Both the position numbers and the translations under genes were made by a program. The notes under the pieces were generated by a model that was given only the letters and a program-made list of their open reading frames with translations, ran no database searches and was not told where the DNA came from. A stretch of DNA of 64,000 bases from a virus: positions 32,021 to 96,020 of IMG/VR virus record IMGVR_UViG_3300047471_000616; one strand, 5' to 3'. Shown here piece by piece: positions 4,297-56,327 of this stretch. Numbering within the stretch: position 1 is the stretch's first letter; every line of letters starts with the position of its first letter.

Positions 4297-5246
4297 ACTG
4301 GCAAGACTTCCTCACTGACAATCAGATAGAATGGGTTTCACGCGGGCCTAATACGGCCCGTGGTGAGATCAGCATTCAGTGTCCGTGGTGCGGCGATGAA
4401 GACCCCAGCCAACACCTGGGCATCAATCTGTCCAAGGGAAGCTGGGGTTGCCTGCGCAACCCTGAGCATCGCGGCCATTCAGCCACCTACCTGATTGGCA
4501 CCCTGCTCAGGTGTTCGCAACACCAGGCCAGAATCATAGTCGATCAGTACAGTAGAAGCGATCCGGACCAGATTGACACCAGTGACATACCAGAAGTTGG
4601 TGAGGACTGGTTCAAGAAAGCTAAATTGGTTGAACCACCTGAAGTGCTACCAACTCTACGCGCGATTGAGGCTACAGGGAGCACGGCCAAGTTCTGGCAA
4701 TATTTGCTGGTCAGGGGCTTTAACCCAGATGCCGTAATCAGGCAGTACAAGCTCCAATGCTGTATGGTGGACCGCTACAAGGACCGGCTGATCATACCGC
4801 TGTATCAGCGCAAGGCACTGATTGCCTGGACCGGCCGTGCTCTTGGTACCCCAGTAACCGCACCACGCTACCTCAGCTCCAAGCGGGTCAAGGAGACCAT
4901 TTTCAATGAGGACGACCTGATGCAGGGCGGCAGGTTGTTGTTCATCACTGAGGGGCCGTTCGACGCCATGAAGCTGGACTATCACGGCCTTGAACAGGGG
5001 GTGCGGGCCACCTGCACCTTCGGCACCAGCATACCCATTGAACAGCTGGTGCTGTTGAACAGCCGAAGAGCCCGCTTCGATAAAACCGTTATACTGTTCG
5101 ACCGTGATGCGGTAGAGCCTGCTTTCATAGCCAAGGAGTGGCTGCCGTCATCTACTGTGACGGTAGGGCAGCTGCCTGAGGGGGTCAAAGACCCAGGGGA
5201 ACTATCCAGGGAGCAAATTCAGGAGTTGATCAATGGACAGACCTGA
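4293..5246 (+). CDS. DNA primase (Zn finger + TOPRIM)
   Basis: CPWC...GC Zn finger, RLIIP, ITEGPFDA, FDRDA, KDPGE. True start is likely ATG 4293 (ATGA overlap). Confidence 0.88.
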   Translation: MNWQDFLTDNQIEWVSRGPNTARGEISIQCPWCGDEDPSQHLGINLSKGSWGCLRNPEHRGHSATYLIGTLLRCSQHQARIIVDQYSRSDPDQIDTSDIPEVGEDWFKKAKLVEPPEVLPTLRAIEATGSTAKFWQYLLVRGFNPDAVIRQYKLQCCMVDRYKDRLIIPLYQRKALIAWTGRALGTPVTAPRYLSSKRVKETIFNEDDLMQGGRLLFITEGPFDAMKLDYHGLEQGVRATCTFGTSIPIEQLVLLNSRRARFDKTVILFDRDAVEPAFIAKEWLPSSTVTVGQLPEGVKDPGELSREQIQELINGQT

Positions 5247-7442: not shown

Positions 7443-7987
7443 CGCTATCTCCTCCTCGTATTCAGGACACCCCAATGAGCCGTAAAAACAAGGAGGATTG
7501 GGGGCCAGGCCCCTGGCAGAATGAACCTGACGATAAGGATTGGGTTGACCCAGCCACCATGCTGGATTGTAAAATACTACGCGGCCCGTTTGGGGCTCTC
7601 TGCGGGTACGTTGGCGTACCGAAAGAGCACCCGGCTTATGGAATGAGCTACAGTTTTTATATAGAGGGCTATGTCGACGAAAATGTTGAGTGGTGGCGTA
7701 GGCACATCACCCATCGGGTAGAATACAAAATCATGGACATTGACGTGCACGGAGGGCTGACTTTCTCAGGCCCACACACAGACAGTGATCTTCACTGGTT
7801 CGGCTTTGATTGTTCACATGCCTTTGACTTTACCCCAGGATTACTTGACGGTGAGACTTTACAGCATATCCGCATGAAGGATGAAATTTACCGCGATATT
7901 GAATATGTCACCACGCAAGTCGAATCCTTGGCGAAGCAGCTGGCAGCAATAAAGAGGTTAGATGATGGACAGACAGGAACTAGTTAA
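7439..7987 (+). CDS. conserved phage hypothetical protein
   Basis: CGYVGVP..HP, VHGGLTF, WFGFDCSH motifs; start may be 7475. Confidence 0.7.
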   Translation: MTLSPPRIQDTPMSRKNKEDWGPGPWQNEPDDKDWVDPATMLDCKILRGPFGALCGYVGVPKEHPAYGMSYSFYIEGYVDENVEWWRRHITHRVEYKIMDIDVHGGLTFSGPHTDSDLHWFGFDCSHAFDFTPGLLDGETLQHIRMKDEIYRDIEYVTTQVESLAKQLAAIKRLDDGQTGTS

Positions 7988-41316: not shown

Positions 41317-42055
41317 TGGTACCAGGATGCGCTAACCAGGGCATGATCAACGGCTGACGGCCCTTCCTGTACAACTCCAGCTTCTCACCCTTTTGCAGAT
41401 AGGGGTTTTCATTCATCAACCGCACTCGTATTTCAAGCCTATCCCCTTGTAAAACTAGGGGGAAGTTTAGACTGTCGTGAAACATGAAGTGTTGCGAATC
41501 CGGGGCTGGCCTGGTGCATTCAAAGGCGAACTGAGTTGCCAGGTGATTGGGTGCCCACTTGAAGCCGTGGGACTCAAGTTGTGCCCGGTACATGCGGCAG
41601 ATCAGGTGGTCCTCTTCCTTCAGGAAGAGCGGGAAGGTACCCCTGCGCTTTTCCAGGAACTGCATCAGCCGGGTTGAGCGTAGCCCACAGCCGTTGCCCA
41701 CGTTCCAGTTGTCTTCATACCACCATGGGGCACCAACGTAGTCATACTTCAGGAATTCATTGGTCCAGCACAGCGTGTTGATGATCCACGAATCCCATTG
41801 AATGAAGATGGCAAAATCAGTGGTCAGGTACTTTGGCACCCGGTACCAGAAAAACTTGTTGTAGTCTTCGTGCTCCAGCCACGGAGCAACTTCTACCCAC
41901 CGTGCCCCGCCTACCTTCAGATCAGTGTCTGAGAAAATGATGACGTCGCCAAACTCAATGCCACGAAGTGAGTCCTCAACGGCGAGCTTGGCTAGTTCTG
42001 GGCATGTAGTATCCATCATTACTAAAGAAACGCTAGGCAACTCAAGCTTTTTCAT
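41294..42055 (-). CDS. DUF5672-like protein (putative GT-A-fold glycosyltransferase)
   Basis: IQWDSWIIN...W..EFL.YDYVGAPW, VGNG.GLRS, EDHLIC, FAFE. Confidence 0.72.
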   Translation of the reverse strand: MKKLELPSVSLVMMDTTCPELAKLAVEDSLRGIEFGDVIIFSDTDLKVGGARWVEVAPWLEHEDYNKFFWYRVPKYLTTDFAIFIQWDSWIINTLCWTNEFLKYDYVGAPWWYEDNWNVGNGCGLRSTRLMQFLEKRRGTFPLFLKEEDHLICRMYRAQLESHGFKWAPNHLATQFAFECTRPAPDSQHFMFHDSLNFPLVLQGDRLEIRVRLMNENPYLQKGEKLELYRKGRQPLIMPWLAHPGTNEISVHS

Positions 42056-43455
42056 GCTGCTTTCTGCTGCTTCCACGACCTGGCAAGAAGCTGCATCTCC
42101 CTGGCCACACGCTCCATAACTTCGTCCCAGTCACCCATTTGCTTCTGGCCGAAGATGCGCATGGTTGGGTACCAGGCCGTGTCTTCACGATTGTCCAGCC
42201 AACGCCAACAATTGTCAAACCGGCTGAGCATCCACACCGGTTTGCCAAGTGCCCCAGCAAGGTGCGCGACTGACGTGTCCACGGTGATCACAAGATCCAG
42301 GTTTTCAATCATCGCAGCAGTATCAAAGAAGTCATAGAAGTCGGCCGTGAAGTCGCCAATGGCCATGTTCTTTGGGGGCTTTCGGCACTGTGGGCCAGGA
42401 AGCCCCATTTGTAGTGAGATCCAGGCAAGGTCCGGCACTGCATCAGCTACGGGGGCAAATGAATTAAGGGTCAGTGACCGCCTGCGGTCAATAGAACTGG
42501 CCAACGGGTTGTTGTCCCTATTCATGCCTGCCCAGCAGATACCCACCAGCATGCCAGGCGGCATGGCTTTGAGTTGTTCCCGGAAAATACCAACGCGGTG
42601 CTTGTCCGCGTAGACGTAGGGGCACTTCGCCGGAATTTCATCGTAAACAGACCACAAGATACGTGGCAGGGACATGAGTGGGGCAACGGCAACAATACCA
42701 TCAGGCAGCATCTCACCAAAGGAAACTACACGATCCACCCCCTCCAAAGTTTCAGCAAGACGCAACACCGGGTGACGTACTTCCAGGAAGAGTTTGCCGT
42801 GCCAAATTTCCCTGACTATGGTGACGTAGCGCATGAACTGCAGGATATCTCCCATACCCTGCTCGCCGTAAAGCAATAAAATATCATCCTTGGATTTAGT
42901 ATCCTCGCCCTGCCATTCAGGGTAGGGCAGGTTGCGCGCCGGGGATTGAGAACTTTTCCAGCGCCATTCGTACTCTTTCCAGCCCTCTTCAAACCGGCCC
43001 AGTTGCAACAAGCAGAAGCTATAACCCAGGTGGCCGTCAACGTAGTCTGGCCCTACTTCGGTGGCCGTTTTGTATTCTTTGAGTGATTCCTCAATCTTGC
43101 CCAGCCGCCTGTAGCAAGCACCCCGGTTACTGAATATTTCCGGTATTCTTCCGCCCTTGAGCATGGCCGTGGATAGATCTTCCAGCGCCCGCTCAAACAT
43201 GTCCAGGTCCATGTAGGCGGCAGCCCGATTGTTGTAGAACTCAAATGCTTCGGGGTCTACGGCAATAGCCCGGTCATAATTGACAATGGCGTCGAACGGC
43301 TGGCCAAGTTGACCGATCATGGAAGCCCGGTTGTTCCAGGCCGGGGTAAAATCGGGCTTCACCAGCAGAATCTTGTTCAGGTACTCAATCGCCGTAAACA
43401 GATCACCTTTGGCCTGGAACCGTAGGGACTCAACGAACATATCTTGCCACAGCAT
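42052..43455 (-). CDS. TPR repeats + GT9-like glycosyltransferase
   Basis: Five to six TPRs, EGW.EYEWRW, EQGMGDILQF.RY, DTAA.IENLDLVITVDTSVAHLAGALGKPVW. Confidence 0.88.
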   Translation of the reverse strand: MLWQDMFVESLRFQAKGDLFTAIEYLNKILLVKPDFTPAWNNRASMIGQLGQPFDAIVNYDRAIAVDPEAFEFYNNRAAAYMDLDMFERALEDLSTAMLKGGRIPEIFSNRGACYRRLGKIEESLKEYKTATEVGPDYVDGHLGYSFCLLQLGRFEEGWKEYEWRWKSSQSPARNLPYPEWQGEDTKSKDDILLLYGEQGMGDILQFMRYVTIVREIWHGKLFLEVRHPVLRLAETLEGVDRVVSFGEMLPDGIVAVAPLMSLPRILWSVYDEIPAKCPYVYADKHRVGIFREQLKAMPPGMLVGICWAGMNRDNNPLASSIDRRRSLTLNSFAPVADAVPDLAWISLQMGLPGPQCRKPPKNMAIGDFTADFYDFFDTAAMIENLDLVITVDTSVAHLAGALGKPVWMLSRFDNCWRWLDNREDTAWYPTMRIFGQKQMGDWDEVMERVAREMQLLARSWKQQKAA

Positions 43456-43585
43456 TACAGGCTCCCTCTGTTGGTGGCCACACTTTGTCGCTAGCATAAG
43501 TAAAAGCTAGAGCCAGGACTGCGGCTATGAATAGAGCCGCAGCAGGTTCCAGGATCAGTCTTTTCAGGGTTTTAACTCTGGTCAT
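43430..43585 (-). CDS. small membrane protein
   Basis: One TM helix; ATGA coupling. Confidence 0.5.
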   Translation of the reverse strand: MTRVKTLKRLILEPAAALFIAAVLALAFTYASDKVWPPTEGACNAVARYVR

Positions 43586-44981: not shown

Positions 44982-46013
44982 TTATGCGACCAGCACGCCC
45001 TGAAGGAAAGCGTTGCTCAGCGTCATGTTGCCCGCCCAGCCAATCAGCCGGATCATGGCATCCTGGTTGACCGAGAAACGATCCGGGTCAAGCGGTACCA
45101 TGTTCCTGCGTGAGTGGGGCCGCCAGTGAAGGTACTTCGTGTTGAGGAAGTACATTGTCGTGGACGGCGCACCACCAACCGCAGAGCTAGACGAGCTAAC
45201 CTGCGGCGGCAGCGGGTCGGAGCTGAAGCCCTGGAAGCCACCATCCAGCACAACGTCGCTGTTCAGGTATTTCAGCGAGTTGAAGCCGTACTCGGCCATA
45301 TCCGGCGCGGCGTTCTCAGTTTGCACGCGCTGGATGGCCTGCAGTGACTGCAGGTAGTAACGATAGGTGACGTTGTCGGCGATGATCAGGTCCGGGTAAT
45401 CACGCCCGCGAACCAGCAGCGTCCACAACGAGTCCATCTGGCTGAGGATGGTAGCGGCAGTAAGCGTCGTGCTGCCGTTGGTGACAGCCGACCATGCCTG
45501 GTTCTGCCAGAAGGTCCACTGCGAACGGTCAATGCCGCCCACCGTACCGGTTGTCGGCGAAGAAGCCACCAGAAGCTGGAGGCCGCCCACCGAGTTGCTC
45601 ACCGTGCCGTCACCGTAGATACCCTGGCTGAGGCCGTTCATGAACGTATCTTCGGCGTTCATAATGCGGGACTCGAGCAGGTCGATGATGGCTTCCTCGC
45701 CGGAGTTTTGCAGTTCCTCCAACCCGCTGATGCTGACCGCAACTGCGGCCTGGCGGATCGGGTATTCAGCCGCCGTGAACACCTGCGACGGGGCAATATT
45801 CAGGGTTTGATAGCCCGAATACCACTGGAACGTCTGGTTGTCGGCGTAGTTGAGCTCTTGCACGATAGTACGGCCACCTGAGAAGGTTTTCAGGTTACCG
45901 CGCCGCGTAAGCCGCAGAAGTGCGGCGTTGTTGCGGCTCATGTTGTCGGCAAGTTCGCCAGTACGATTACGAAGCGTCGTAGTGACAACTTCCGACAGGT
46001 TCGGGAAAGCCAT
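44982..46013 (-). CDS. major capsid protein
   Basis: TTTLRNR...LADN...NNA.L, SGG..I..EL.Y, YSGY..L, SISGLEE..NSG, YFLNT.Y, NQDA; highly biased codons. Confidence 0.92.
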   Translation of the reverse strand: MAFPNLSEVVTTTLRNRTGELADNMSRNNAALLRLTRRGNLKTFSGGRTIVQELNYADNQTFQWYSGYQTLNIAPSQVFTAAEYPIRQAAVAVSISGLEELQNSGEEAIIDLLESRIMNAEDTFMNGLSQGIYGDGTVSNSVGGLQLLVASSPTTGTVGGIDRSQWTFWQNQAWSAVTNGSTTLTAATILSQMDSLWTLLVRGRDYPDLIIADNVTYRYYLQSLQAIQRVQTENAAPDMAEYGFNSLKYLNSDVVLDGGFQGFSSDPLPPQVSSSSSAVGGAPSTTMYFLNTKYLHWRPHSRRNMVPLDPDRFSVNQDAMIRLIGWAGNMTLSNAFLQGVLVA

Positions 46014-46199: not shown

Positions 46200-47402
46200 T
46201 TACTCGCTCAGTTCCGCTATTGACTCGCGGAGGCTCTCAGCGACAGTCTTACCCTTCTTCCCCTTGACTGGCAAGGTGGGTGCACCGGGGGCATTACCGG
46301 TAAGCGAACCGGCCTGTGCCCTGCGCGCCTTGTTGGCTTGATCCTGCTGCGCTTTCTGCTCAGCCACTTGCTTTGCCTTTAGCTCAGCATCGGCCTTTTG
46401 GCGTTGATCGGCCAGGATTTTCTCACGGATCTCAGGCAGCGCCCACAGGGCCATGTCGTAGGCCCGGTCCAGGTCGGCCGCACCGTTGGGCAGCGGCGGC
46501 ACTTCCTGAGAAGCAATCAGGCGGGCCATGGTACGCCGTACTTCTTCAAAGTAGGGCTTACCCTTGGACCAGCTGGCCAGGATTTCCTCAGTCTTGGCCT
46601 GGGATTGCTGCTGGAAGCTGCTGCTCAGCTGACCAAGCTGGTCGGTGAAACCCTGCTTCAGACCCTGCAGTTCCTGACGCATTTCATCGATGTACTTCTG
46701 CACCCCAAGCGGGATTTCACCCGCTGGCTGTGCTTCGGTCCCTGGTTGCTGCACAGGCTGTTTCCCAGCCGCCTGCTTTTCCTGCCAGAGCTGGATCAGT
46801 TCTTGCGGGATCAACCCTGGGATGGAACGCAGGTCATACTTGAAGGACTGCGCCAGGGCCGGGAAAGCTACCTGCGGGTTGGCGCTGAGGGATTCAAACC
46901 AGGCGAACAGTTGATTGACGGCCTGTCCCGGTGTATGGCCGTGGCGGCGGATGACTTCCATCCTGGGCTGCAGAACCTGGTCAATTTCACTGTACTTTTT
47001 CTTCAGGTCCTCAACGCCCTTGGCCATGTCCACTTCGCGTTTGCTGACGGCAGCCTGGATCACGGGCGGCAGGTTTTCCCACTCAGCCTTGGCTTCCTTG
47101 GTCCAGCCTTCAGGGGCAGCAACTGCCGGTTCAGCAGCTGCTTCCTCAGCGGGGGCGGCTTCTTCACCTTCAACCGGGGCAGTCTCAGCGCCCTGCACTT
47201 CTTCACGGCGGGCGGTGCTGACGTACTTGCCTTTGGTCTTGGGTGGCGGTTCCTGCGCCTTGCGGGCCGTATCAACGCTTTTCTCAAGCTGCTTGCGCAG
47301 TTCACCACGGCCACTGCCAGGTCCATCCGCTGCCCGCTCATTCATGGGCGGCGGCGCTGCAGGTTCCGGTGCACCAGTTTCTACGTTCTGTTCTTCAGCC
47401 AC
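46200..47402 (-). CDS. scaffolding protein
   Basis: AP..W..EA..EW..LP, L..AY..A.W; Glu/Gln/Ala-rich; directly upstream of the MCP. Confidence 0.8.
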   Translation of the reverse strand: MAEEQNVETGAPEPAAPPPMNERAADGPGSGRGELRKQLEKSVDTARKAQEPPPKTKGKYVSTARREEVQGAETAPVEGEEAAPAEEAAAEPAVAAPEGWTKEAKAEWENLPPVIQAAVSKREVDMAKGVEDLKKKYSEIDQVLQPRMEVIRRHGHTPGQAVNQLFAWFESLSANPQVAFPALAQSFKYDLRSIPGLIPQELIQLWQEKQAAGKQPVQQPGTEAQPAGEIPLGVQKYIDEMRQELQGLKQGFTDQLGQLSSSFQQQSQAKTEEILASWSKGKPYFEEVRRTMARLIASQEVPPLPNGAADLDRAYDMALWALPEIREKILADQRQKADAELKAKQVAEQKAQQDQANKARRAQAGSLTGNAPGAPTLPVKGKKGKTVAESLRESIAELSE

Positions 47403-47440: not shown

Positions 47441-47608
47441 TTAGTAACCACTACGAATCTTTCTCAACCAACCGAAAAAATCCAGAATAGATTTTTTGGC
47501 TGGCTTACCACTTTGCCTGATACTTCCATCCGGAAGTACCTCGACTGACGTATCATCTTCGCTGTGCAACAAAGCCTCAAGTTCTTCCACTGTTGTCCGT
47601 TTACGCAT
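47441..47608 (-). CDS. small hypothetical protein (55 aa, not in ORF track)
   Basis: MRKRTTVEELEALLHSEDDTSVEVLPDGSIRQ...; SD GAGGA; overlaps the upstream stop. Confidence 0.6.
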   Translation of the reverse strand: MRKRTTVEELEALLHSEDDTSVEVLPDGSIRQSGKPAKKSILDFFGWLRKIRSGY

Positions 47609-47903
47609 GGCCATTCCTCAGTTGGTAAATAGTTCTTTTGATGTCTTCGACCCGTTTCTCACGACTCAGCGGTACTGGTTTACGCGGGCGGGTGATGGCG
47701 GGGTCGTTGCCTACTTCTACGCAGCCCGCCGCTTTGGTTTCTGCCCTGAATGCCGCCTTTGAAGTGTGGTAGCGACCGGTGACCATATGTCGCGTCGGTT
47801 CCATTATATCGCTGATGACGTTCGGCGCGGCGCTACCACCCGCCAAAGGCGGGGCTAAGTGCTTTTCCACCAACTTCCCATTTCTGTACACGTACACTGA
47901 CAT
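47601..47903 (-). CDS. conserved small protein between portal and scaffold
   Basis: P.VISD.M.P..H..TG..HTSK..FR..TKA.GCVEVGN. Confidence 0.75.
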   Translation of the reverse strand: MSVYVYRNGKLVEKHLAPPLAGGSAAPNVISDIMEPTRHMVTGRYHTSKAAFRAETKAAGCVEVGNDPAITRPRKPVPLSREKRVEDIKRTIYQLRNGHA

Positions 47904-48008
47904 TGGCCTTGCCCTTTTTCTTCTTGAAAAACAACTCAATCATTCCAGGCCGATGATCACGATGTGGCGGAGGTCTGCGGCGTTTTCGGCCGCGTCTTAC
48001 CCTTTTCA

Positions 48009-50606
48009 TCATGCTGACTTTCCAGGTACCTGGTGTGCTGGTGCTGCCGCAGATGGCGGCGGCGGGGGCATCATTGCCATTTGCATCTCATGGTGTGCCT
48101 TGAATTTCTCAACCTGCCCTTTCAGCTCCTGAATTTGCATTTCCATTTCTTTCATCTTCAGGTCCATCTGCTTACTGGCCATGTCAGCCTGGTTCTCTTG
48201 CTGAGTATTCTGGTTTTCCATCTGCTGATTTTCTAGTTCAGCCTTGGCGGCAATGCCTTCACCCTGGGTTTTCATTTGGATAGCTTGGATCTGGGCGTCA
48301 GCCTTCTTACCCTCAATCTGCATCTTGGCTTGAATTGGGTCAGGCTGTGATGCTGCTTTCTGGGCAGCCTCCTGAGCAAACGCCTCGGCCTTTTCGGCAA
48401 ATTCCTCAATGGCCATTTCCAGGTCACGGCCAACACGATAGCCGCGCACGCCAAAAGTCAGAAGTTTGCCCAGCAAGGGAACCAGCGGCGGCAGCTGTGC
48501 ACCCAGCGGCAGCGCCTGCACCAAGAAACCGGTGACGCTGGTCATGAACTCAGTGCGGTCCTGCTTTTCTTGGGCGGCGTCAGCGAAGATTGTACTGTCG
48601 ACTTCAATGTCCACCCTGAAGCCGCGCAGCCGTTCATCACGTATCAGGTCCAGCGCCTTGGCAATGGCCTGTAGGGCGCAGAGCTTGCGCTGAAGCTCTG
48701 GGTCCATGGGTGGCAGCATGCCCGCACCAGGAGCCATTTGTGGCCCGCCTGGAGGCATCCCAGGCATACCCTGCCCTCCAGGCGGTGGGGCACCGGGCAT
48801 TTGTGGCCGCAATGGTACGACATTTGAGCCGGGGGGTGGCCCAGGAATGACACCAGGGGGCGCAGCGGATGAGGGGGAGCGCGCGCCCCCTGGCGCTGAC
48901 TGCCCCATGGATGTGGCAGGTGCCTGACTGGGAGGAGTCAGAGGCCCTTGGCCGGGGGCAGCAGGTGGTTGGTTCAGGGCCGACAAAGACGGCATATCGT
49001 CCTTGCACAACCCCTCTTCGTACAGCGCACCGCTGGCCTCAATCAGCGACTGCGGGGAAAAATGCTGGGCCATGATGTCGGCCATGATCCGCACAGTGTC
49101 ACGGGCAAACCGGGCTACTTCGTTCTGCCGGTGGGTAAGCCGGGTGCCAGTATTGTTGGATTTCAGCCTGACCCCACCCAGGGTTTCCCTGGCATCGCTG
49201 GTGCCACGCAAAATGTCGTTGATCCCGGTCAACCGGTCCATTTCTTCAATTTGCTTTTGCTTGACCATCATCAGTTCGTTGATGACGTCCTTGATCACCT
49301 GCACCGGCATCAGCGACCAGTTGCCTTCCACGCCGCCCTTTTCGGCGAAAGCCGCCCAATCGTCCACCGGTATCAGTTCGTTCTCAATGCTTTCATTGAA
49401 AAGGCGCTGAATATCCTTGGCTGCCGCATTGTAGACACCACACATCTTGCAGGCTTTGGTGAGCATGGCGATGCGCTGGGTCAGTTCGTCAACCTGAATG
49501 GCCTGATCCTGGTACTGAATGAAATCAGGAACCGGGATCAGGGTGTTGTTGCTGGGGTTGGCGTACAGCGGGCGTGGCGTGGGGTAGAAGAACTCAAGCT
49601 GGAGCGGGTCCTCCTTGCGGTCACACAGGTGATCGTAGCCCATAGCTACCCAGTACAGGCATTTGTCGGTCTTGGACCAGATTTCGTACACTTGCCCTTT
49701 ATCTTCGTCGGCCGACTGCAGCATGGTGTTCTGCACGCGGTCACCCCTGGTGTCCTTTTCCAGCGGGATGCCCTTGCCAACAACCGAACCGAACCGGCGC
49801 TTCATTTGGTCCCGCGACATGTACACGCGCTTGCCAATACCCGTAACTTCGGTCCAGTTCCTGGCGCGCACCGGGAAGGTGAAGAAGTCACACCATTCAA
49901 CGAAGTCAACCGGAGTGCTCTCTCGAATAACCCTATCCCCGGTGGCTTCCAGCTTTTCCTCTTCCGGAGTCTGTTCCGCGGACTGGTCGTCATCAATTTC
50001 CTGCTTGACTTCTTCATGGTTGATCAGCCGGGGGCGAGTACGCCCGCCAGGGGTGGTGGTCTGTGTCTCTTGTTCGGTTGGCGGGGTGTGGCGGCCCGGC
50101 AGCTCCCCCTGCGTATCCCGCATGTCGGTCTGTGACTCGGGCGGCAGGGAAACGCCTTCCTCAATCTCAGGCTCATAGCGCACCCAAACCGTACCCCGGC
50201 CAGGGAGCAAGTAGTCGGTAACCGCTGCGTTGAGGGCGTCATGGAACCCGCAAATCTCAATTTCATTGCGTAGCGCCCGCTCCAGGATCTGCGCGGCAGT
50301 GCGGCCAGCCGGGTCAGGGTCCTTGAACCTTCTTTCGGCAATGGGAAGCGGGGTTTTGCCGTACAGTGCCGGTTTCAAGATTTCAATATTGGACCACAAG
50401 GCGTTGTAGCGGCGCTGGCCTTCCTCGTCAGTACGGTTGCGTTCGTCACGGTAGCGTTTGACAATGGTTTCGCCACGCTTGACCCAATGCTTGTGCTGGC
50501 TGTTGTCCTTGACGTAGTTGATCTGATCCAGCCAAAACTTGGCCAGGCGTCGGCTTTCATCGCCGCCATCAGGTCCAGCTAGTTCGTCAAGTTGGACAGC
50601 CATCAA
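48009..50606 (-). CDS. portal protein
   Basis: YNALWSN...L.PALY, ERRF.D.DP, L.P.PDF..YQDQ, TGI.DI.RG, F..DIE.DST; follows TerL. Confidence 0.88.
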   Translation of the reverse strand: MMAVQLDELAGPDGGDESRRLAKFWLDQINYVKDNSQHKHWVKRGETIVKRYRDERNRTDEEGQRRYNALWSNIEILKPALYGKTPLPIAERRFKDPDPAGRTAAQILERALRNEIEICGFHDALNAAVTDYLLPGRGTVWVRYEPEIEEGVSLPPESQTDMRDTQGELPGRHTPPTEQETQTTTPGGRTRPRLINHEEVKQEIDDDQSAEQTPEEEKLEATGDRVIRESTPVDFVEWCDFFTFPVRARNWTEVTGIGKRVYMSRDQMKRRFGSVVGKGIPLEKDTRGDRVQNTMLQSADEDKGQVYEIWSKTDKCLYWVAMGYDHLCDRKEDPLQLEFFYPTPRPLYANPSNNTLIPVPDFIQYQDQAIQVDELTQRIAMLTKACKMCGVYNAAAKDIQRLFNESIENELIPVDDWAAFAEKGGVEGNWSLMPVQVIKDVINELMMVKQKQIEEMDRLTGINDILRGTSDARETLGGVRLKSNNTGTRLTHRQNEVARFARDTVRIMADIMAQHFSPQSLIEASGALYEEGLCKDDMPSLSALNQPPAAPGQGPLTPPSQAPATSMGQSAPGGARSPSSAAPPGVIPGPPPGSNVVPLRPQMPGAPPPGGQGMPGMPPGGPQMAPGAGMLPPMDPELQRKLCALQAIAKALDLIRDERLRGFRVDIEVDSTIFADAAQEKQDRTEFMTSVTGFLVQALPLGAQLPPLVPLLGKLLTFGVRGYRVGRDLEMAIEEFAEKAEAFAQEAAQKAASQPDPIQAKMQIEGKKADAQIQAIQMKTQGEGIAAKAELENQQMENQNTQQENQADMASKQMDLKMKEMEMQIQELKGQVEKFKAHHEMQMAMMPPPPPSAAAPAHQVPGKSA

Positions 50607-52276: not shown

Positions 52277-52706
52277 TGGCGTCCAGGTGTGCGTTGATGT
52301 TGGTCTGATTGGCCTTGCCGTAGGCGCGATCAAAGAGCAGCGCGGCAGCAGCAAGCGCAGCGGTTTCGTTGGGTGAAGTCTTTGCAATTTCGGCTACCCG
52401 CCGCATGGCCGCATCAGCGTTCTTGCGGGCAAGTTCCTGGATCTCCCGCGATTCTTTGGCCACGGTTTCCTGCAGCCTGAGCCGCTTGCGTTTGACTTTC
52501 GTATGGCTTGGTTTCATCACGACCTTTACCCCTTGACGTTTAAGGGACTGCAGATGCCAGAATTTGTACATGCCCCGCATGCGCTTCACGTGCGCCTCGG
52601 GCGACATTTGCCCAGGTGTTGGGGGGCCAGCAGGGGTTGGTATAGTAGTAACTGGTACTCTGCCGGGCAAAGATACCTTTAGTCTTGGACGTACAATCGG
52701 CACCAT
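52107..52706 (-). CDS. probable terminase small subunit
   Basis: ELAR...AA...LAAA..LFDRAYGKA.Q helical motif; directly upstream of and overlapping terL. Confidence 0.65.
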   Translation of the reverse strand: MVPIVRPRLKVSLPGRVPVTTIPTPAGPPTPGQMSPEAHVKRMRGMYKFWHLQSLKRQGVKVVMKPSHTKVKRKRLRLQETVAKESREIQELARKNADAAMRRVAEIAKTSPNETAALAAAALLFDRAYGKANQTNINAHLDANGKATDISQKELDTRIDKALDRIESLTRGAPKAPARQEPLIDLRKLDRDPDGTPLN

Positions 52707-53380
52707 TTCTTTGGCTCTATGTAACCTTTGACTTTTTCGCAGCTGTGCGGGTCAATGAAATGTTTACAGGCACATCTTGGCCACCGTGGTGTCCAGCCGC
52801 AGTGCGAACCTGAGTGGCCGTCGCTGTAATCAACGTCCTTTTTGTCCTGTTTTTCCTTGCCATTCCCCATAGCCTTTTCCATCCTGGCAATCAATCCTCT
52901 ATTGACCGGCGGGGCGTAGTAAGGCTGCATGTCCAGGTTGGCAGGCACTTTCTTCAGGGCCTCGTGTTCATCAGCTTTGATGAATGGCTTGAGGGCGTCG
53001 TTATAGGGGTTCCAGAACAAACCGGCTGAGATGACACCCCGCCGCTCATAACCAGTAGCGGCTTGGTGTGCGTCGGCATAGGACCAACCGCAAGCGTCCA
53101 TTACTGCCTTCTCAAACCGTTCGTGCATGGTGAGGAACCTGGATGCGTCAAAAGTCTTCTTGTGTCCGTCTTCTTCAATGGTCAGTTCCTCAGGAAAGTG
53201 ACGGTCTATGTAAATAGTTTCCCCATTCTCTGAGTAGCCACTGAGGTAAGGCAGGTCGTAGTCGCAGTTAATGTCCTGAACCCGATAAAGTAATTTGGTC
53301 ACCTCAGGGTTCTTCAGCAGCCGGTCAATGACCTGGCTGGCCTGGCCACTCCCTTCATTATGGTCGTGTCCACAGGACAT
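52679..53380 (-). CDS. HExxE-motif protein with C-terminal HiPIP-like Cys domain
   Basis: FLTMHERFEK...AH..A...E; C-terminal VDYSD...C...CKHF..P.SC..VKG.I.P..WC..Y. Confidence 0.6.
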   Translation of the reverse strand: MSCGHDHNEGSGQASQVIDRLLKNPEVTKLLYRVQDINCDYDLPYLSGYSENGETIYIDRHFPEELTIEEDGHKKTFDASRFLTMHERFEKAVMDACGWSYADAHQAATGYERRGVISAGLFWNPYNDALKPFIKADEHEALKKVPANLDMQPYYAPPVNRGLIARMEKAMGNGKEKQDKKDVDYSDGHSGSHCGWTPRWPRCACKHFIDPHSCEKVKGYIEPKKWCRLYVQD

Positions 53381-53664
53381 TACAGTTTCTTACCTGTTTT
53401 CGGCACGCCCACCTTGTGCGCATGGGGTACGCCAGACAGCCTGAGTGCCCCCTCTATCTGATGGGCTTTGTGACCGAAGCCATGAGCCTTGGGGTGTGGC
53501 TGCCTTAGAACCGGCCCCAGGGCGTGAGTACGGCCTGGGTGCAGGGGCACCGAAGTAGGCTTGAACACGCCAGGGGTCTGTACCTTACCCACGGGGTTTT
53601 CCCCGGCCACTTTCTTGGCCGGGACTGCAGGCTCAGAAGCGTAAAACGGCTTCTTACTTGCCAC
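53380..53664 (-). CDS. small basic His-rich protein
   Basis: Likely GTG start 53664 overlapping the upstream stop; C-terminal motif shared with 53654..54478. Confidence 0.6.
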   Translation of the reverse strand: MASKKPFYASEPAVPAKKVAGENPVGKVQTPGVFKPTSVPLHPGRTHALGPVLRQPHPKAHGFGHKAHQIEGALRLSGVPHAHKVGVPKTGKKL

Positions 53665-54478
53665 GATGGCCCACCCGGTGGGCACCTGAATGGCCAGACA
53701 TGCGCAGGACACCTTTACGCTGACCACCTGCATGTCCGTAGCCATGTGCCATGTTTGCAGCCGGTGGTCGGAAGCTGTGGGCTACCCCACCAAAATTCTG
53801 TCCTACGTGGTGTTCGGCAATGTCGGTGCGGCCAGCACCCAGGCTCTTGCCCTGAGGCTGGCTGTGGTTCCCAGGAGCTGGCCCCTTTTCCTGCAGTTCG
53901 CTGCCGCCCCGGTCAGCCGGGCCGTTATTCGCAACTTCGCCATGGTGCTTGCCCATACCTGAGCCTCCTTTTCCATGATGTTCAGTCAGTTCTGCGTCGT
54001 AGCTTTGGTTTGGCCTGTGGCCAGTAAATGTAGGAGCGTTGCCAATGGATTTGCCACGCGGCTGCTTGGCATGCGCCCCGGCGTTGTACTCACCATACGG
54101 CGGCTTCCCTTCACGCTTGAAGCCAGGGTTCCCTGGGAAGTGGCCGCTGCGGTCATAGCTGCCACCACCGCCATGTTTCACCGAATCCTCCTTCTTCAGG
54201 AATTTGGTATTTCTGGACTCAGTGCTTGCTCCGCCAAGAGCTGCCTTACCCATGGCATTGTCACGCTTTGCCCTGGACGCACCATATTTCTTGCCTTTGT
54301 CGGCGGCATGAAACTCTTTGGCCACCTTCTTAGGGATACCGGCTGCTTCACCAGTTGGTTGCCAGCCATGAGCAATGGCAGACATAGTCTTGGCTTGCTT
54401 GACACTGTGTGACGGCATTTTCGCTCTCCTGTTTCTGAGCGTGGTCGTGGCTAGTTCAGTCAGTCCGGGGCTGGGCAT
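53654..54478 (-). CDS. Gly/His/Lys-rich protein with MCP-like leader; second start at 54418
   Basis: MPSHSVKQAKTM.A.AH...GIP..VAKEF..ADK motif seen in phage pre-terminase proteins; SD AGGAGA before 54418. Confidence 0.7.
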   Translation of the reverse strand: MPSPGLTELATTTLRNRRAKMPSHSVKQAKTMSAIAHGWQPTGEAAGIPKKVAKEFHAADKGKKYGASRAKRDNAMGKAALGGASTESRNTKFLKKEDSVKHGGGGSYDRSGHFPGNPGFKREGKPPYGEYNAGAHAKQPRGKSIGNAPTFTGHRPNQSYDAELTEHHGKGGSGMGKHHGEVANNGPADRGGSELQEKGPAPGNHSQPQGKSLGAGRTDIAEHHVGQNFGGVAHSFRPPAANMAHGYGHAGGQRKGVLRMSGHSGAHRVGHRGK

Positions 54479-54480
54479 GA

Positions 54481-54606
54481 CTAGGAATTCTTCAATTGGC
54501 CCAGCGTAACGAAGAAGGGCAGGTTGTGCGGCTGTTCAGTGCCGCCGCCAGGTGGAGTGACACCGCCAGGATGGAAAAGCGTGCCCACCATGAGAAGTAT
54601 CGTCAT
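54481..54606 (-). CDS. 41-aa peptide
   Basis: ATGA overlap with the GT41 stop; MTILLMVGTLFHPGG...LPFFVTLGQLKNS. Confidence 0.5.
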   Translation of the reverse strand: MTILLMVGTLFHPGGVTPPGGGTEQPHNLPFFVTLGQLKNS

Positions 54607-56327
54607 TGATTTGCTACCTTCAGTTCGTCTTGTTTCGTTTCGTGGCCGCAGTAGCGCCACCACATGGATCTGTAAGCATCTTCAACTTCCCCAACATAAT
54701 CACCGCACAGCGGGGATTTAAGGAACTGATCGCGCAATTCACTGCGGGCCTTGCTCAGTTCTGTACGTTCGGCTGCCAATTTGACCGCCTTGTTCACGTA
54801 ATCGTCTATTGACTTGGCAACCCAATTATCCCGTCCCATGATGTGCAGTGCCGTGGCAGTGGTCCTGCCACCTACCTGGCCATTGTAAAGGGTGATCACC
54901 GGGACACCCATGTAGAGGATTTCCAGGGCGGTGACACCGCCAGTATGCGGGAAGGTATCAAGCACCAGGTCGACGTTCTGGTAGATCAGAAACTGCTCGG
55001 GGTGAGAGCAATCCTGCATGAACAGGATGCGCTTAGGGTCAACATCGTGCATTACTTCGCGGATGCGCTTGATAGCGTAAGGCCGACGCATCCCCAGATC
55101 TTTGACTATCAACCGGCTGTTTGGCGTGCGCAGGAGTATCTTGTGCCACGCTTCTAGCGACTGTGGGCTGTATTTCTCAAACCGGCCAAAGACCCCAAAG
55201 GTGAAAATGCCATCCCGGCCTACTGGCGGGTGGCTGGCGCTGGGCTGATTGTAGTTCGGCGGTTCGTAGGCCACCACACAGGAAATATCCCATATTTTCT
55301 CAGCGAAGAACTTGCGCTCTTCTTCAGGAATTGAATAGGGATCAGCAAAGAAGTAATCAATCTCAGGGCAGCCGCTGCCATGAGCAAAGCCCCAAGCATG
55401 GATCTGAACCGGTGCCGGTTTACGGGTGAAAAGTGGCAGACGATTGCCCCCAGTATGACCAGATAAATCAACCAGAATATCAATGCCGTCAGCCCTGATC
55501 ATGGCCTCAGCTTCTTCATCATTCTTAGCTGAAATATCACGCCAGTTGGTCTTTTCCATAAACCGCTTGGTCTGAGAATCATCAGTACTTGCTGGCATCG
55601 TCATGTAGCAGTAAGGATCATAAGCATTGCGCTCATGGTACAGGATCACCTTGCCAAAGATGAAGGCTGCCGAATGCATCTTGAAGTCACCGCCGACGTA
55701 GCCTATGCGCAGCTTGCGGTCCGGTACGCGGTCATTGGCGTGCGGTTTCTTCTCACCTTTATAGGCAAACCGCTCATACCACACCTGCCGCGCCTTGTAG
55801 TTTTCTTCCGGCGTGGTATTCTTCAGCGTGCGGACAAAAACGCTGTTGAATCCCACCATTTCCCTTGTTGAATAAGGTGGCTCGAACGGCTTGGCTATGG
55901 CCGCCTCATAAGCCTCACAAGCCTCTGCTGCCTTCGCGCAGGCAGTAAGGATCATGCCCTTGGCGCAAAATGCATCGGCACTCTCAACAAGATTGATGGA
56001 CCGGTTGATGGCTTTCAGCGCCTCGTCAGGCCGTTCTACCTCAAGCAAGGCCAATGAATAATTGTACCAAGTTGTTGAATTCTTATCGTCGAACAGTAGC
56101 GACCGCTCAAGCCGCTGAATGGCCGCCAGAAACTGACCTTGCTGCGCCGCCATGACCCCGTGGTTGGCAGTAATCGGCCCATTGTTTGGGTCGATACGCA
56201 AGCCTTTGAAGTAGGCTTGTTCGGCCTCAGCAAAGCGGCCTGCTACATGATGCTGCAGGCCAATATCTAGCCACTCCTCAGCCATTGAGGAGCCAATACG
56301 CGGAAGCAAGTGGAACGGCTGTGGCAT
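54603..56327 (-). CDS. TPR + GT41 (OGT/SPINDLY-family) protein glycosyltransferase
   Basis: N-terminal TPRs; LRIGYV.GDF..HS, DGIDILVDLSGHT..NRL, KPAPVQ, DLVLDTFP..G..T..E.L.MGVPVITL. Confidence 0.92.
   Translation of the reverse strand: MPQPFHLLPRIGSSMAEEWLDIGLQHHVAGRFAEAEQAYFKGLRIDPNNGPITANHGVMAAQQGQFLAAIQRLERSLLFDDKNSTTWYNYSLALLEVERPDEALKAINRSINLVESADAFCAKGMILTACAKAAEACEAYEAAIAKPFEPPYSTREMVGFNSVFVRTLKNTTPEENYKARQVWYERFAYKGEKKPHANDRVPDRKLRIGYVGGDFKMHSAAFIFGKVILYHERNAYDPYCYMTMPASTDDSQTKRFMEKTNWRDISAKNDEEAEAMIRADGIDILVDLSGHTGGNRLPLFTRKPAPVQIHAWGFAHGSGCPEIDYFFADPYSIPEEERKFFAEKIWDISCVVAYEPPNYNQPSASHPPVGRDGIFTFGVFGRFEKYSPQSLEAWHKILLRTPNSRLIVKDLGMRRPYAIKRIREVMHDVDPKRILFMQDCSHPEQFLIYQNVDLVLDTFPHTGGVTALEILYMGVPVITLYNGQVGGRTTATALHIMGRDNWVAKSIDDYVNKAVKLAAERTELSKARSELRDQFLKSPLCGDYVGEVEDAYRSMWWRYCGHETKQDELKVANQ

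Follow-up and report, generated by a model that had tools for sequence, protein, structure and literature searches.

The window, a stretch of 64,000 nucleotides (bases 32021-96020) of the complete 96,020-bp virus record IMGVR_UViG_3300047471_000616, which has direct terminal repeats, was found to carry an open reading frame (ORF) whose first 17 codons resemble, at the peptide level, the N-terminal arm (N-arm) of the major capsid protein (MCP) encoded in the same window. Comparative sequence evidence shows this leader to be a homologue of the MCP N-arm that is translated and under selection as a peptide, portable between proteins and optional among relatives. We put at about an even chance the proposal that a minor long isoform of the downstream protein carries it as an MCP-derived tag for targeting to the procapsid. 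The features concerned are as follows.

53654..54478, minus strand: leader ORF, 274 amino acids (stop codon 53654..53656), made up of the leader, a DUF3008-like domain, a Gly/His-rich body and a C-terminal motif.
54419..54478, minus strand: leader (codons 1-20), in which a three-residue basic linker follows the copy of residues 1-17 of the MCP N-arm; upstream ATG at 54476..54478.
44982..46013, minus strand: MCP, 343 amino acids; N-arm residues 1-17 at 45963..46013.

The two N-termini have 11 identities over residues 1-17, as had been reported in an earlier note on this DNA, and both contain T-T-T-L-R-N-R at positions 11-17 in the same register; the count given there of six differing codons out of these seven was also reproduced. 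MCP residues 2-17 were scanned without gaps against all six frames of the window, and 500 shuffled queries were treated in the same way. The leader scored 50 and the second-best match 29, and the maxima of the shuffled queries had a mean of 28 +/- 3 and went up to 44; as none of the 500 reached the score of the leader, a chance origin of the match is excluded. In six-frame translation, neither the window nor the complete genome of 96,020 bp has copies of the motif other than the two in the MCP and the leader, and the same scan of the Myxococcus phage Mx8 and the Bradyrhizobium phage ppBjS10J-1 gave no second copy (best non-self scores <=36). The identity of the MCP is firm from its match to phrog_9953 'major head protein' (E 1.9e-109). 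Its nearest cultured relatives are the MCPs of ppBjS10J-1 (53% identity) and of Myxococcus phages Mx9 (49%) and Mx8 (47%), and that of Stenotrophomonas phage BUCT555 is 47% identical. A Foldseek search with a low-confidence model gave weak matches, all of them to HK97-fold capsids, and by family profile and this fold match the protein is assigned to the HK97-fold major capsid proteins. An ESM Atlas search returned unnamed viral clusters below 0.8 and nothing else.

Leader sequences were pooled from MCP-centred IMG/VR loci, cargo-centred loci, a degenerate DNA pattern and the protein database, in which a search found 91 homologues of the leader ORF; related loci were obtained with the alignment queries A1 and A2, but not with a single-protein query. 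This gave 29 distinct non-MCP N-termini with the leader, all from related uncultured phages, and the frame is open into the downstream protein in 29/29, so that the leader, whose retention in homologues the earlier note had left as a question, is indeed kept. Across 13 loci the 14 core codons show a proportion of synonymous differences (pS) of 0.5-1.0, which is saturated, and a proportion of non-synonymous differences (pN) of 0-0.3. In pairwise comparisons, six synonymous and no non-synonymous changes separate the leaders of L010 and L085, six and one those of L006 and L008, and eight and two those of the window and L010. Because pS is saturated while pN is low, the leader frame is judged to be translated and under purifying selection, and no other account of the pattern of substitutions is available. 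The earlier statement that the match lies at the peptide level is thus borne out by both the codon differences and the excess of pS over pN, and the alternative by which that note could have been refuted, a decayed MCP remnant or a chance match, is contradicted by the conserved upstream frame and the selection acting on it.

When 26 MCPs of 52-100% identity are aligned, the N-arm has T13 and R17 as invariant residues and T12 as a nearly invariant one. The invariant positions of the leader-protein alignment are P4, L6, E8, T12, T13, R15, N16 and R17, so that the residues kept by the MCP family are also kept by the leader. Leaders nevertheless form a lineage of their own, with P-G-L-T-E-I-A versus P-N-L-S-E-I-V in the MCPs, and the synonymous divergence between a leader and its own MCP equals that between leaders; for these reasons they are old duplicates and not recent gene conversions. 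One protein, P0025, has a longer leader that aligns ungapped with MCP residues 1-30, including R27-N28-N29-A30, which shows that the module descends from a 5' fragment of the MCP gene and was trimmed later.

The MCP genes of several relatives are split (G001, represented by L277-L280 at G001:C1:10952-13351; L261:5217-5490; L037:5085-5606; L092:18271-20551; L047), whereas that of the window is uninterrupted. In G001, a 95-kb relative, three Rfam Intron_gpI matches (51, 44 and 33 bits) lie between MCP segments of residues 1-40, 39-77, 65-120 and 119-336, and in L261 a group I intron begins right after MCP codon ~24, the first exon being essentially the N-arm. G001 also contains a stray copy of MCP residues 2-38 (L281, G001:C1:75013-75123; 62% identity), about 62 kb from its MCP gene. 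This copy is the C-terminal end of a 138-codon open frame. It stops close to where the first intron falls in the MCP gene, and no adjoining intron was detected. Because of the stray copy, the exon-1 sequence of the MCP gene seems prone to duplication in this clade.

At its 3' end the leader runs into the signals for a second translation start.

54416..54418, minus strand: internal ATG (Met21), start of a short form of 254 amino acids; the PHROG profiles start here, and the leaderless orthologues L016 and L047 at the codon equivalent to it.
54426..54430, minus strand: Shine-Dalgarno sequence AGGAG, 7 nucleotides before the internal ATG, within leader codons 17-18 (AGG AGA).

The public gene call for the same protein, P0001, starts at Met21. 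The cargo's own start codon is kept at the junction in 27 of the 29 leader proteins (ATG, or GTG in three), and all 13 leader loci have a Shine-Dalgarno sequence 5-9 nucleotides upstream of it, with duplex energies from -4.2 to -10.3 kcal/mol. This sequence is built from the Asn-Arg codons of the leader (AAC AGG AG). Eight of 13 leaders, but none of seven MCPs, use AGG for the last Arg, and in L163, where R-N-R has become R-S-R, the Shine-Dalgarno sequence is still kept (AGG AGT). If the leader is indeed a tag, the Asn-Arg codons would thereby be dual coding, since they would specify the tag and at the same time form the Shine-Dalgarno sequence of the untagged isoform. The second in-frame ATG (54418) with its own Shine-Dalgarno sequence, pointed out in the earlier note, was confirmed, and both are conserved in relatives, as expected of a nested dual-start gene. 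Because the internal start codon and its Shine-Dalgarno sequence are kept, two isoforms from two in-frame starts are likely, and the two-isoform idea of that note draws further support from the leaderless orthologues and the starts of the PHROG profiles. Upstream of the first ATG the Shine-Dalgarno sequence is variable, being good in L006 and L008. From the sequences at the two starts, the untagged form would be the major product and the tagged form the minor one.

The same leader is found before proteins of at least five architectures among the 29. It precedes a DUF3008-like domain followed by the Gly/His-rich body and C-terminal motif (window, L010, L083, L085, L099 and others), a DUF6496 domain, recognized by a Pfam match, with the same body (L039, L163-L164, L265, L266, P0069 and others), an unrelated protein beginning M-D-K-K-L-G-A-K (L006, L008), the body without an N-terminal domain (P0061), and a bare DUF3008-like domain in proteins of 78-80 amino acids (P0093, P0094). 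A mini-protein of 46 amino acids (L166:3818-3955) consists of the leader and a basic tail rich in Lys, Arg, Pro and Ala, and downstream of it, at 4357, L166 has a distinct DUF6496 gene without a leader. L083 (16-747) and L266 (leader at 7742) have identical leaders and near-identical C-terminal halves with different N-terminal domains, a cassette exchange between the leader and the Gly/His-rich body, each N-terminal domain keeping its own Met. Close homologues in L016, L047, L092 and L097 have no leader; that of L016 starts at the Met of M-D-K-K directly after the stop of a preceding cold-shock gene, and that of L047 at the Met of M-P-I-G-P-T, the equivalent of the second Met. All the genomes in which the leader was found have this type of MCP (seven of the seven whose leader and MCP were both readable, plus G001). 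No copy was found in front of these cargo domains in other phages, nor were other types of N-terminal extension convincing on these domains in unrelated phages, and a search for the leader on longer proteins gave one match, to the DUF3008-like domain only and without the leader. The interpretation put forward in the earlier note is supported in part: for the cargo tag the support is indirect and lies in the presence of one leader on different cargoes, and docking in the procapsid stays a proposal.

The protein behind the leader is basic and Gly/His-rich, in agreement with the earlier description (isoelectric point 10.3, Gly 17.5%, His 7.3%), and belongs to a small gene cluster.

54284..54418, minus strand: DUF3008-like domain (phrog_16759), residues 21-65, with invariant columns in alignments A1 and A5.
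53750..54283, minus strand: Gly/His-rich basic low-complexity body, residues 66-243, with repeated Q-P-x-G-K-S-[IL]-G.
53657..53749, minus strand: C-terminal motif, residues 244-274, A-H-G-[YF]-G-H ... G-x-L-R-x-S-G-H-x-G-A-H-R-[IV]-G.
53380..53664, minus strand: second cluster member, 94 amino acids, with the C-terminal motif of the first member but leaderless; its GTG start overlaps the stop codon of the gene before it.

The match to phrog_16759 (E 2.1e-8) covers profile positions 1-44 of 58 and begins at residue 21. Residues 21-65 had no Pfam match at E 0.01 and also match the N-terminal domain of phrog_22033 'virion structural protein' (E 7.6e-4), which lends weak support to a location of the cargo in the virion. 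The DUF3008-like domain also heads much longer leaderless proteins (P0092, P0063-P0087) and is thus a widely reused N-terminal module; P0092, with 664 amino acids, has it at its N-terminus and contains an H-E-I-Q-H motif, and many leaderless proteins of the P0063-P0087 group end in a conserved L-K-x-L-K-P-P-K-G. No papers on the two cargo domains were found. The cluster comprises two or three adjacent small basic Gly/His-rich genes upstream of terS (L006:453-1598, L008:1215-2377, L039:538-1896), and the leader is only ever on the first of them. All products of the cluster end in G-x-L-R-x-S-G-H-x-G-A-H-R-[IV]-G followed by basic residues and have internal Q-P-x-G-x-S-I-G repeats; they gave no Pfam or PHROG family, and homologues of the second member start with M-P-K-K-x-x-F-Y. 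A second and independent signal, for interaction or loading, is suggested by the shared C-terminal motif. A +1 frameshift joining 53654..54478 to 53380..53745 was considered and rejected, as homologues have a separate second gene and the GTG at 53664 fits as its start.

The order of genes on the minus strand is tail-fibre-like genes, a gene for a protein with tetratricopeptide repeats (TPR) and a GT41 domain, the leader ORF, its small paralogue, a Cys-rich protein of 233 amino acids, terS, terL (Terminase_6N/6C match), portal (48009..50606, phrog_12082 match), two small ORFs, a presumed scaffolding protein of 400 amino acids and the MCP.

46200..47402, minus strand: presumed scaffolding protein, 400 amino acids, so named from its position between portal and MCP and its conservation.
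54481..54606, minus strand: ORF of 41 codons between the GT41 gene and the leader, with an ATGA overlap upstream and its TAG 2 nucleotides before the leader ATG.

The 41-codon ORF has a homologue in none of the fetched loci and its reality is doubtful; it is possibly a device for translational coupling. A scan of 53300..54900 for promoters and terminators gave no minus-strand sites. The 233-residue protein (52679..53380), which lies between the basic-protein cluster and terS, has no family match, and its Cys-rich C-terminal segment of about 60 residues is a stand-alone gene of 64 amino acids in L010 and L085-L087. The same DNA is contained in 24 sequencing runs, all of them soil or rhizosphere metagenome DNA, and no RNA run with the locus is listed. 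In a near-identical strain found in run contigs, with little variation overall, the leader is unchanged.

The following mechanism is proposed. The short form, made from Met21 (54418) with the strong Shine-Dalgarno sequence, would be the ancestral protein, to which the long form starting at 54478 would add a 20-residue module derived from the 5' end of the MCP gene. As this module keeps the conserved N-arm residues P4, L6, E8, T11-T13 and R15-N16-R17, the long form could take the site that normally binds the MCP N-arm in head assembly, for which the C-terminal helix of the scaffold and the N-arm acceptor site on neighbouring MCP subunits are candidates. A defined minority of the basic Gly/His-rich protein would in this way be carried into the procapsid or anchored inside it, and the shared C-terminal motif may also bring along the untagged short form and the leaderless paralogues. 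Since the MCP N-arm contacts the C-terminal helix of the scaffold in those scaffold-dependent capsids that are well studied, a copy of the N-arm is most simply seen as a means to occupy the N-arm site. In phage P22 the C-terminal helix-turn-helix of the scaffold binds the coat N-arm, with coat D14/E15/E18 facing scaffold R293/K296, and the coat N-arm refolds at maturation and reaches into a neighbouring subunit (PMC9965877); in phage 80alpha a C-terminal helix-and-hook of the scaffold binds the N-arm of the capsid protein (PMC5644958). Scaffold homologues in the clade have a conserved C-terminal helix of the S-V-R-E-S-L type preceded by basic residues, which makes the C-terminal helix of 46200..47402 a candidate partner of the N-arm, and this protein had no family match in Pfam, PHROG and PDB searches. 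From these analogies we infer binding of the tagged form to scaffold or capsid, its encapsidation and its role as an adaptor.

Several observations weigh against this mechanism. The upstream ATG of the window has essentially no Shine-Dalgarno sequence (duplex -1.0 kcal/mol), so that the long form may be rare, and the leader is absent in roughly half of the close relatives and hence is not essential. Leaders vary more than the near-invariant MCP N-arm, whose core residues 4-17 (P-N-L-S-E-I-V-T-T-T-L-R-N-R) are essentially identical in all seven genomes with both sequences, and no co-variation of leader and MCP is demonstrable. No cultured phage carries this protein, its body or its C-terminal motif. 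The AlphaFold2 model of the MCP (26 sequences) has a mean pLDDT of 53, with the N-arm below 30, and cannot place the N-arm. PDB sequence searches with the MCP and with the scaffold gave nothing useful. A complex prediction for scaffold residues 296-400 (A4) and ORF residues 1-66 (A5) scored 0.00, controls not having been run, and counts neither for nor against the mechanism.

Other explanations of the leader differ in what they leave unaccounted for. The MCP N-terminus and the leader might share a processing signal, both being pro-peptides for one protease or modifying enzyme, and a product resembling the short form would then arise by cleavage near the K|M junction; one signal could also serve both targeting and cleavage, as does the capsid targeting sequence (CTS) of phage T4. 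The capsid and scaffolding proteins of 80alpha and the host protein L27 indeed share an N-terminal motif cleaved by the protease Prp, which is also present on non-homologous proteins of other phages (PMC5744158), and in the leader proteins the homology always stops a few residues before the cargo Met, at a basic residue. Scans of the head module with Pfam and PHROG found no protease family, however, the F|A motif of Prp is absent from the leader, residues 18-40 of the MCP are highly conserved throughout and show no clear boundary, and there would be no need for a conserved internal start with its Shine-Dalgarno sequence if cleavage yielded the same product. We consider such processing unlikely. 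An assembly modulator or competitor, in which the N-arm copy titrates the partner of the N-arm, so timing or limiting the assembly of capsids, or interferes with co-infecting related phages and delivers no cargo, would explain the same evidence for mimicry and agree with the optional occurrence of the tag, and mimicry of an interface has a precedent in CpmB of the island SaPI1 (PMC5644958). A pure competitor needs no cargo, yet only the L166 mini-protein is nearly bare; the leader is always on the first gene of one basic-protein family beside the packaging genes, and the cargo part is itself conserved, its DUF3008-like domain heading also a PHROG annotated as a virion structural protein. This explanation, too, is held to be quite unlikely.

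Three further explanations account for part of the data only. The leader with its upstream start could be a translation-level device that couples or tunes downstream translation through a peptide without a binding role. It would fit such a device that the 3' codons of the leader form the internal Shine-Dalgarno sequence at all 13 loci and that in the window and L010 the upstream ATG directly adjoins or overlaps the stop of the ORF before it; as it explains neither the peptide conservation of positions 4-17 at saturated synonymous sites nor the match of the conserved residues to the MCP N-arm, it is very unlikely. If instead the leader were a recombination relic, a 5' exon fragment of the MCP gene moved for instance by group I intron mobility, with only Met21 used, this would suit the intron-split MCP genes of relatives, interrupted just after the N-arm exon, the stray copy in G001 and the choice of Met21 by gene callers. 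The open frame in 29/29, a pN far below pS and the persistence of the leader across saturated lineages largely refute the relic, for which only a slight chance is left; it may account for the origin of the leader, but not for its maintenance. The Thr-rich T-T-T on MCP and leader might also be a glycosylation sequon. The window encodes two putative TPR glycosyltransferases (54603..56327 and 42052..43497), of which the former has a GT41 (OGT-like) domain (E 8.4e-43) and adjoins the leader gene directly upstream, so that it could be the enzyme. Among the loci fetched this gene is present only in this genome, and no other locus with a leader has it; phages such as Mx8 keep the MCP motif, and the second transferase, downstream of the MCP and with homologues of 36-50% identity in the same place in about nine relatives, is uncorrelated with the presence of the leader. 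The sequon, now most improbable, was rejected because the GT41 gene and the leader do not co-occur.

Procapsid targeting by the leader also allows a wider reading, which is put forward tentatively as a possibility: the clade may have made the N-arm of its own shell protein into a portable cargo-loading tag, a copy of 17-30 residues placed before the native start of internal proteins. Such a copy may have arisen from the N-arm exon of MCP genes split by introns. A minor tagged isoform would dock on the C-terminus of the scaffold or on unfilled N-arm sites, for example around the portal vertex, and might nucleate the loading of the untagged isoform and the paralogues through the C-terminal motif that they share. 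The searchable literature yielded no account of non-capsid proteins with an N-terminal tag taken from the MCP, and if the reading is true this would be the first case of a natural cargo tag that stems from the capsid protein. The loading of internal or ejected proteins into the procapsid is understood for very few tailed-phage systems (T4 CTS, scaffold-dependent loading in P22), and a self-derived tag would be a simple evolutionary route to it. It would also help to find internal proteins of uncultured phages, including the Gly/His-rich SGHxGAHR[IV]G family, and could serve in engineering as a short, naturally occurring tag with which proteins are packed into shells of the HK97 fold.

By its sequence and processing features the leader appears to be neither of the T4 type nor of the Prp type, and it would work like a CTS combined with a nested dual-start gene. 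In lambda C/Nu3 and herpesvirus UL26/UL26.5, two in-frame starts yield a minor long and a major short protein with a shared C-terminus, which co-assemble in the procapsid. The proposed minor long and major short forms of the window protein follow the same nested scheme, except that the long form adds a protease in those systems and only a 20-residue address-like peptide here. Encapsulin cargo-loading peptides, short terminal peptides on diverse cargo, bind the interior of an HK97-fold shell; they are usually C-terminal and unrelated to the sequence of the shell, whereas the tag described here is N-terminal and comes from the arm of the shell protein. The internal proteins of T4 (IPI-III/Alt) are encapsidated via the CTS, a short, conserved and portable N-terminal peptide on diverse small basic proteins that directs them into the scaffolding core (PMC3012670). 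The leader shares with it the presence of the same short N-terminal peptide on otherwise diverse proteins, and encapsidation is here a proposal from sequence. The CTS of T4, which has not been described as copied from the MCP N-terminus, is removed by the prohead protease; in contrast, the tag here is a homologue of the MCP N-arm, the untagged form would arise from a conserved internal start, and no protease gene is evident, since Pfam and PHROG scans found no protease family in the genes between terS and MCP (two small ORFs at 47441..47939 and the 233-residue protein are without family). As with the capsid protein, scaffolding protein and L27 of 80alpha, the MCP has its N-terminal leader motif in common with proteins that are not homologous to it (PMC5744158), but the 80alpha motif mimics a host ribosomal protein and is an F|A cleavage site for host Prp, whereas the motif here is the MCP N-arm itself and the leader has no F-A dipeptide. 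Finally, SaPI1 CpmB competes with the 80alpha scaffold for its site on the capsid protein, so that there, too, a copied interface motif lets another protein take a site of capsid assembly (PMC5644958); CpmB belongs to a parasitic element and copies the scaffold side, while in the window a gene of the phage itself copies the side of the capsid protein.

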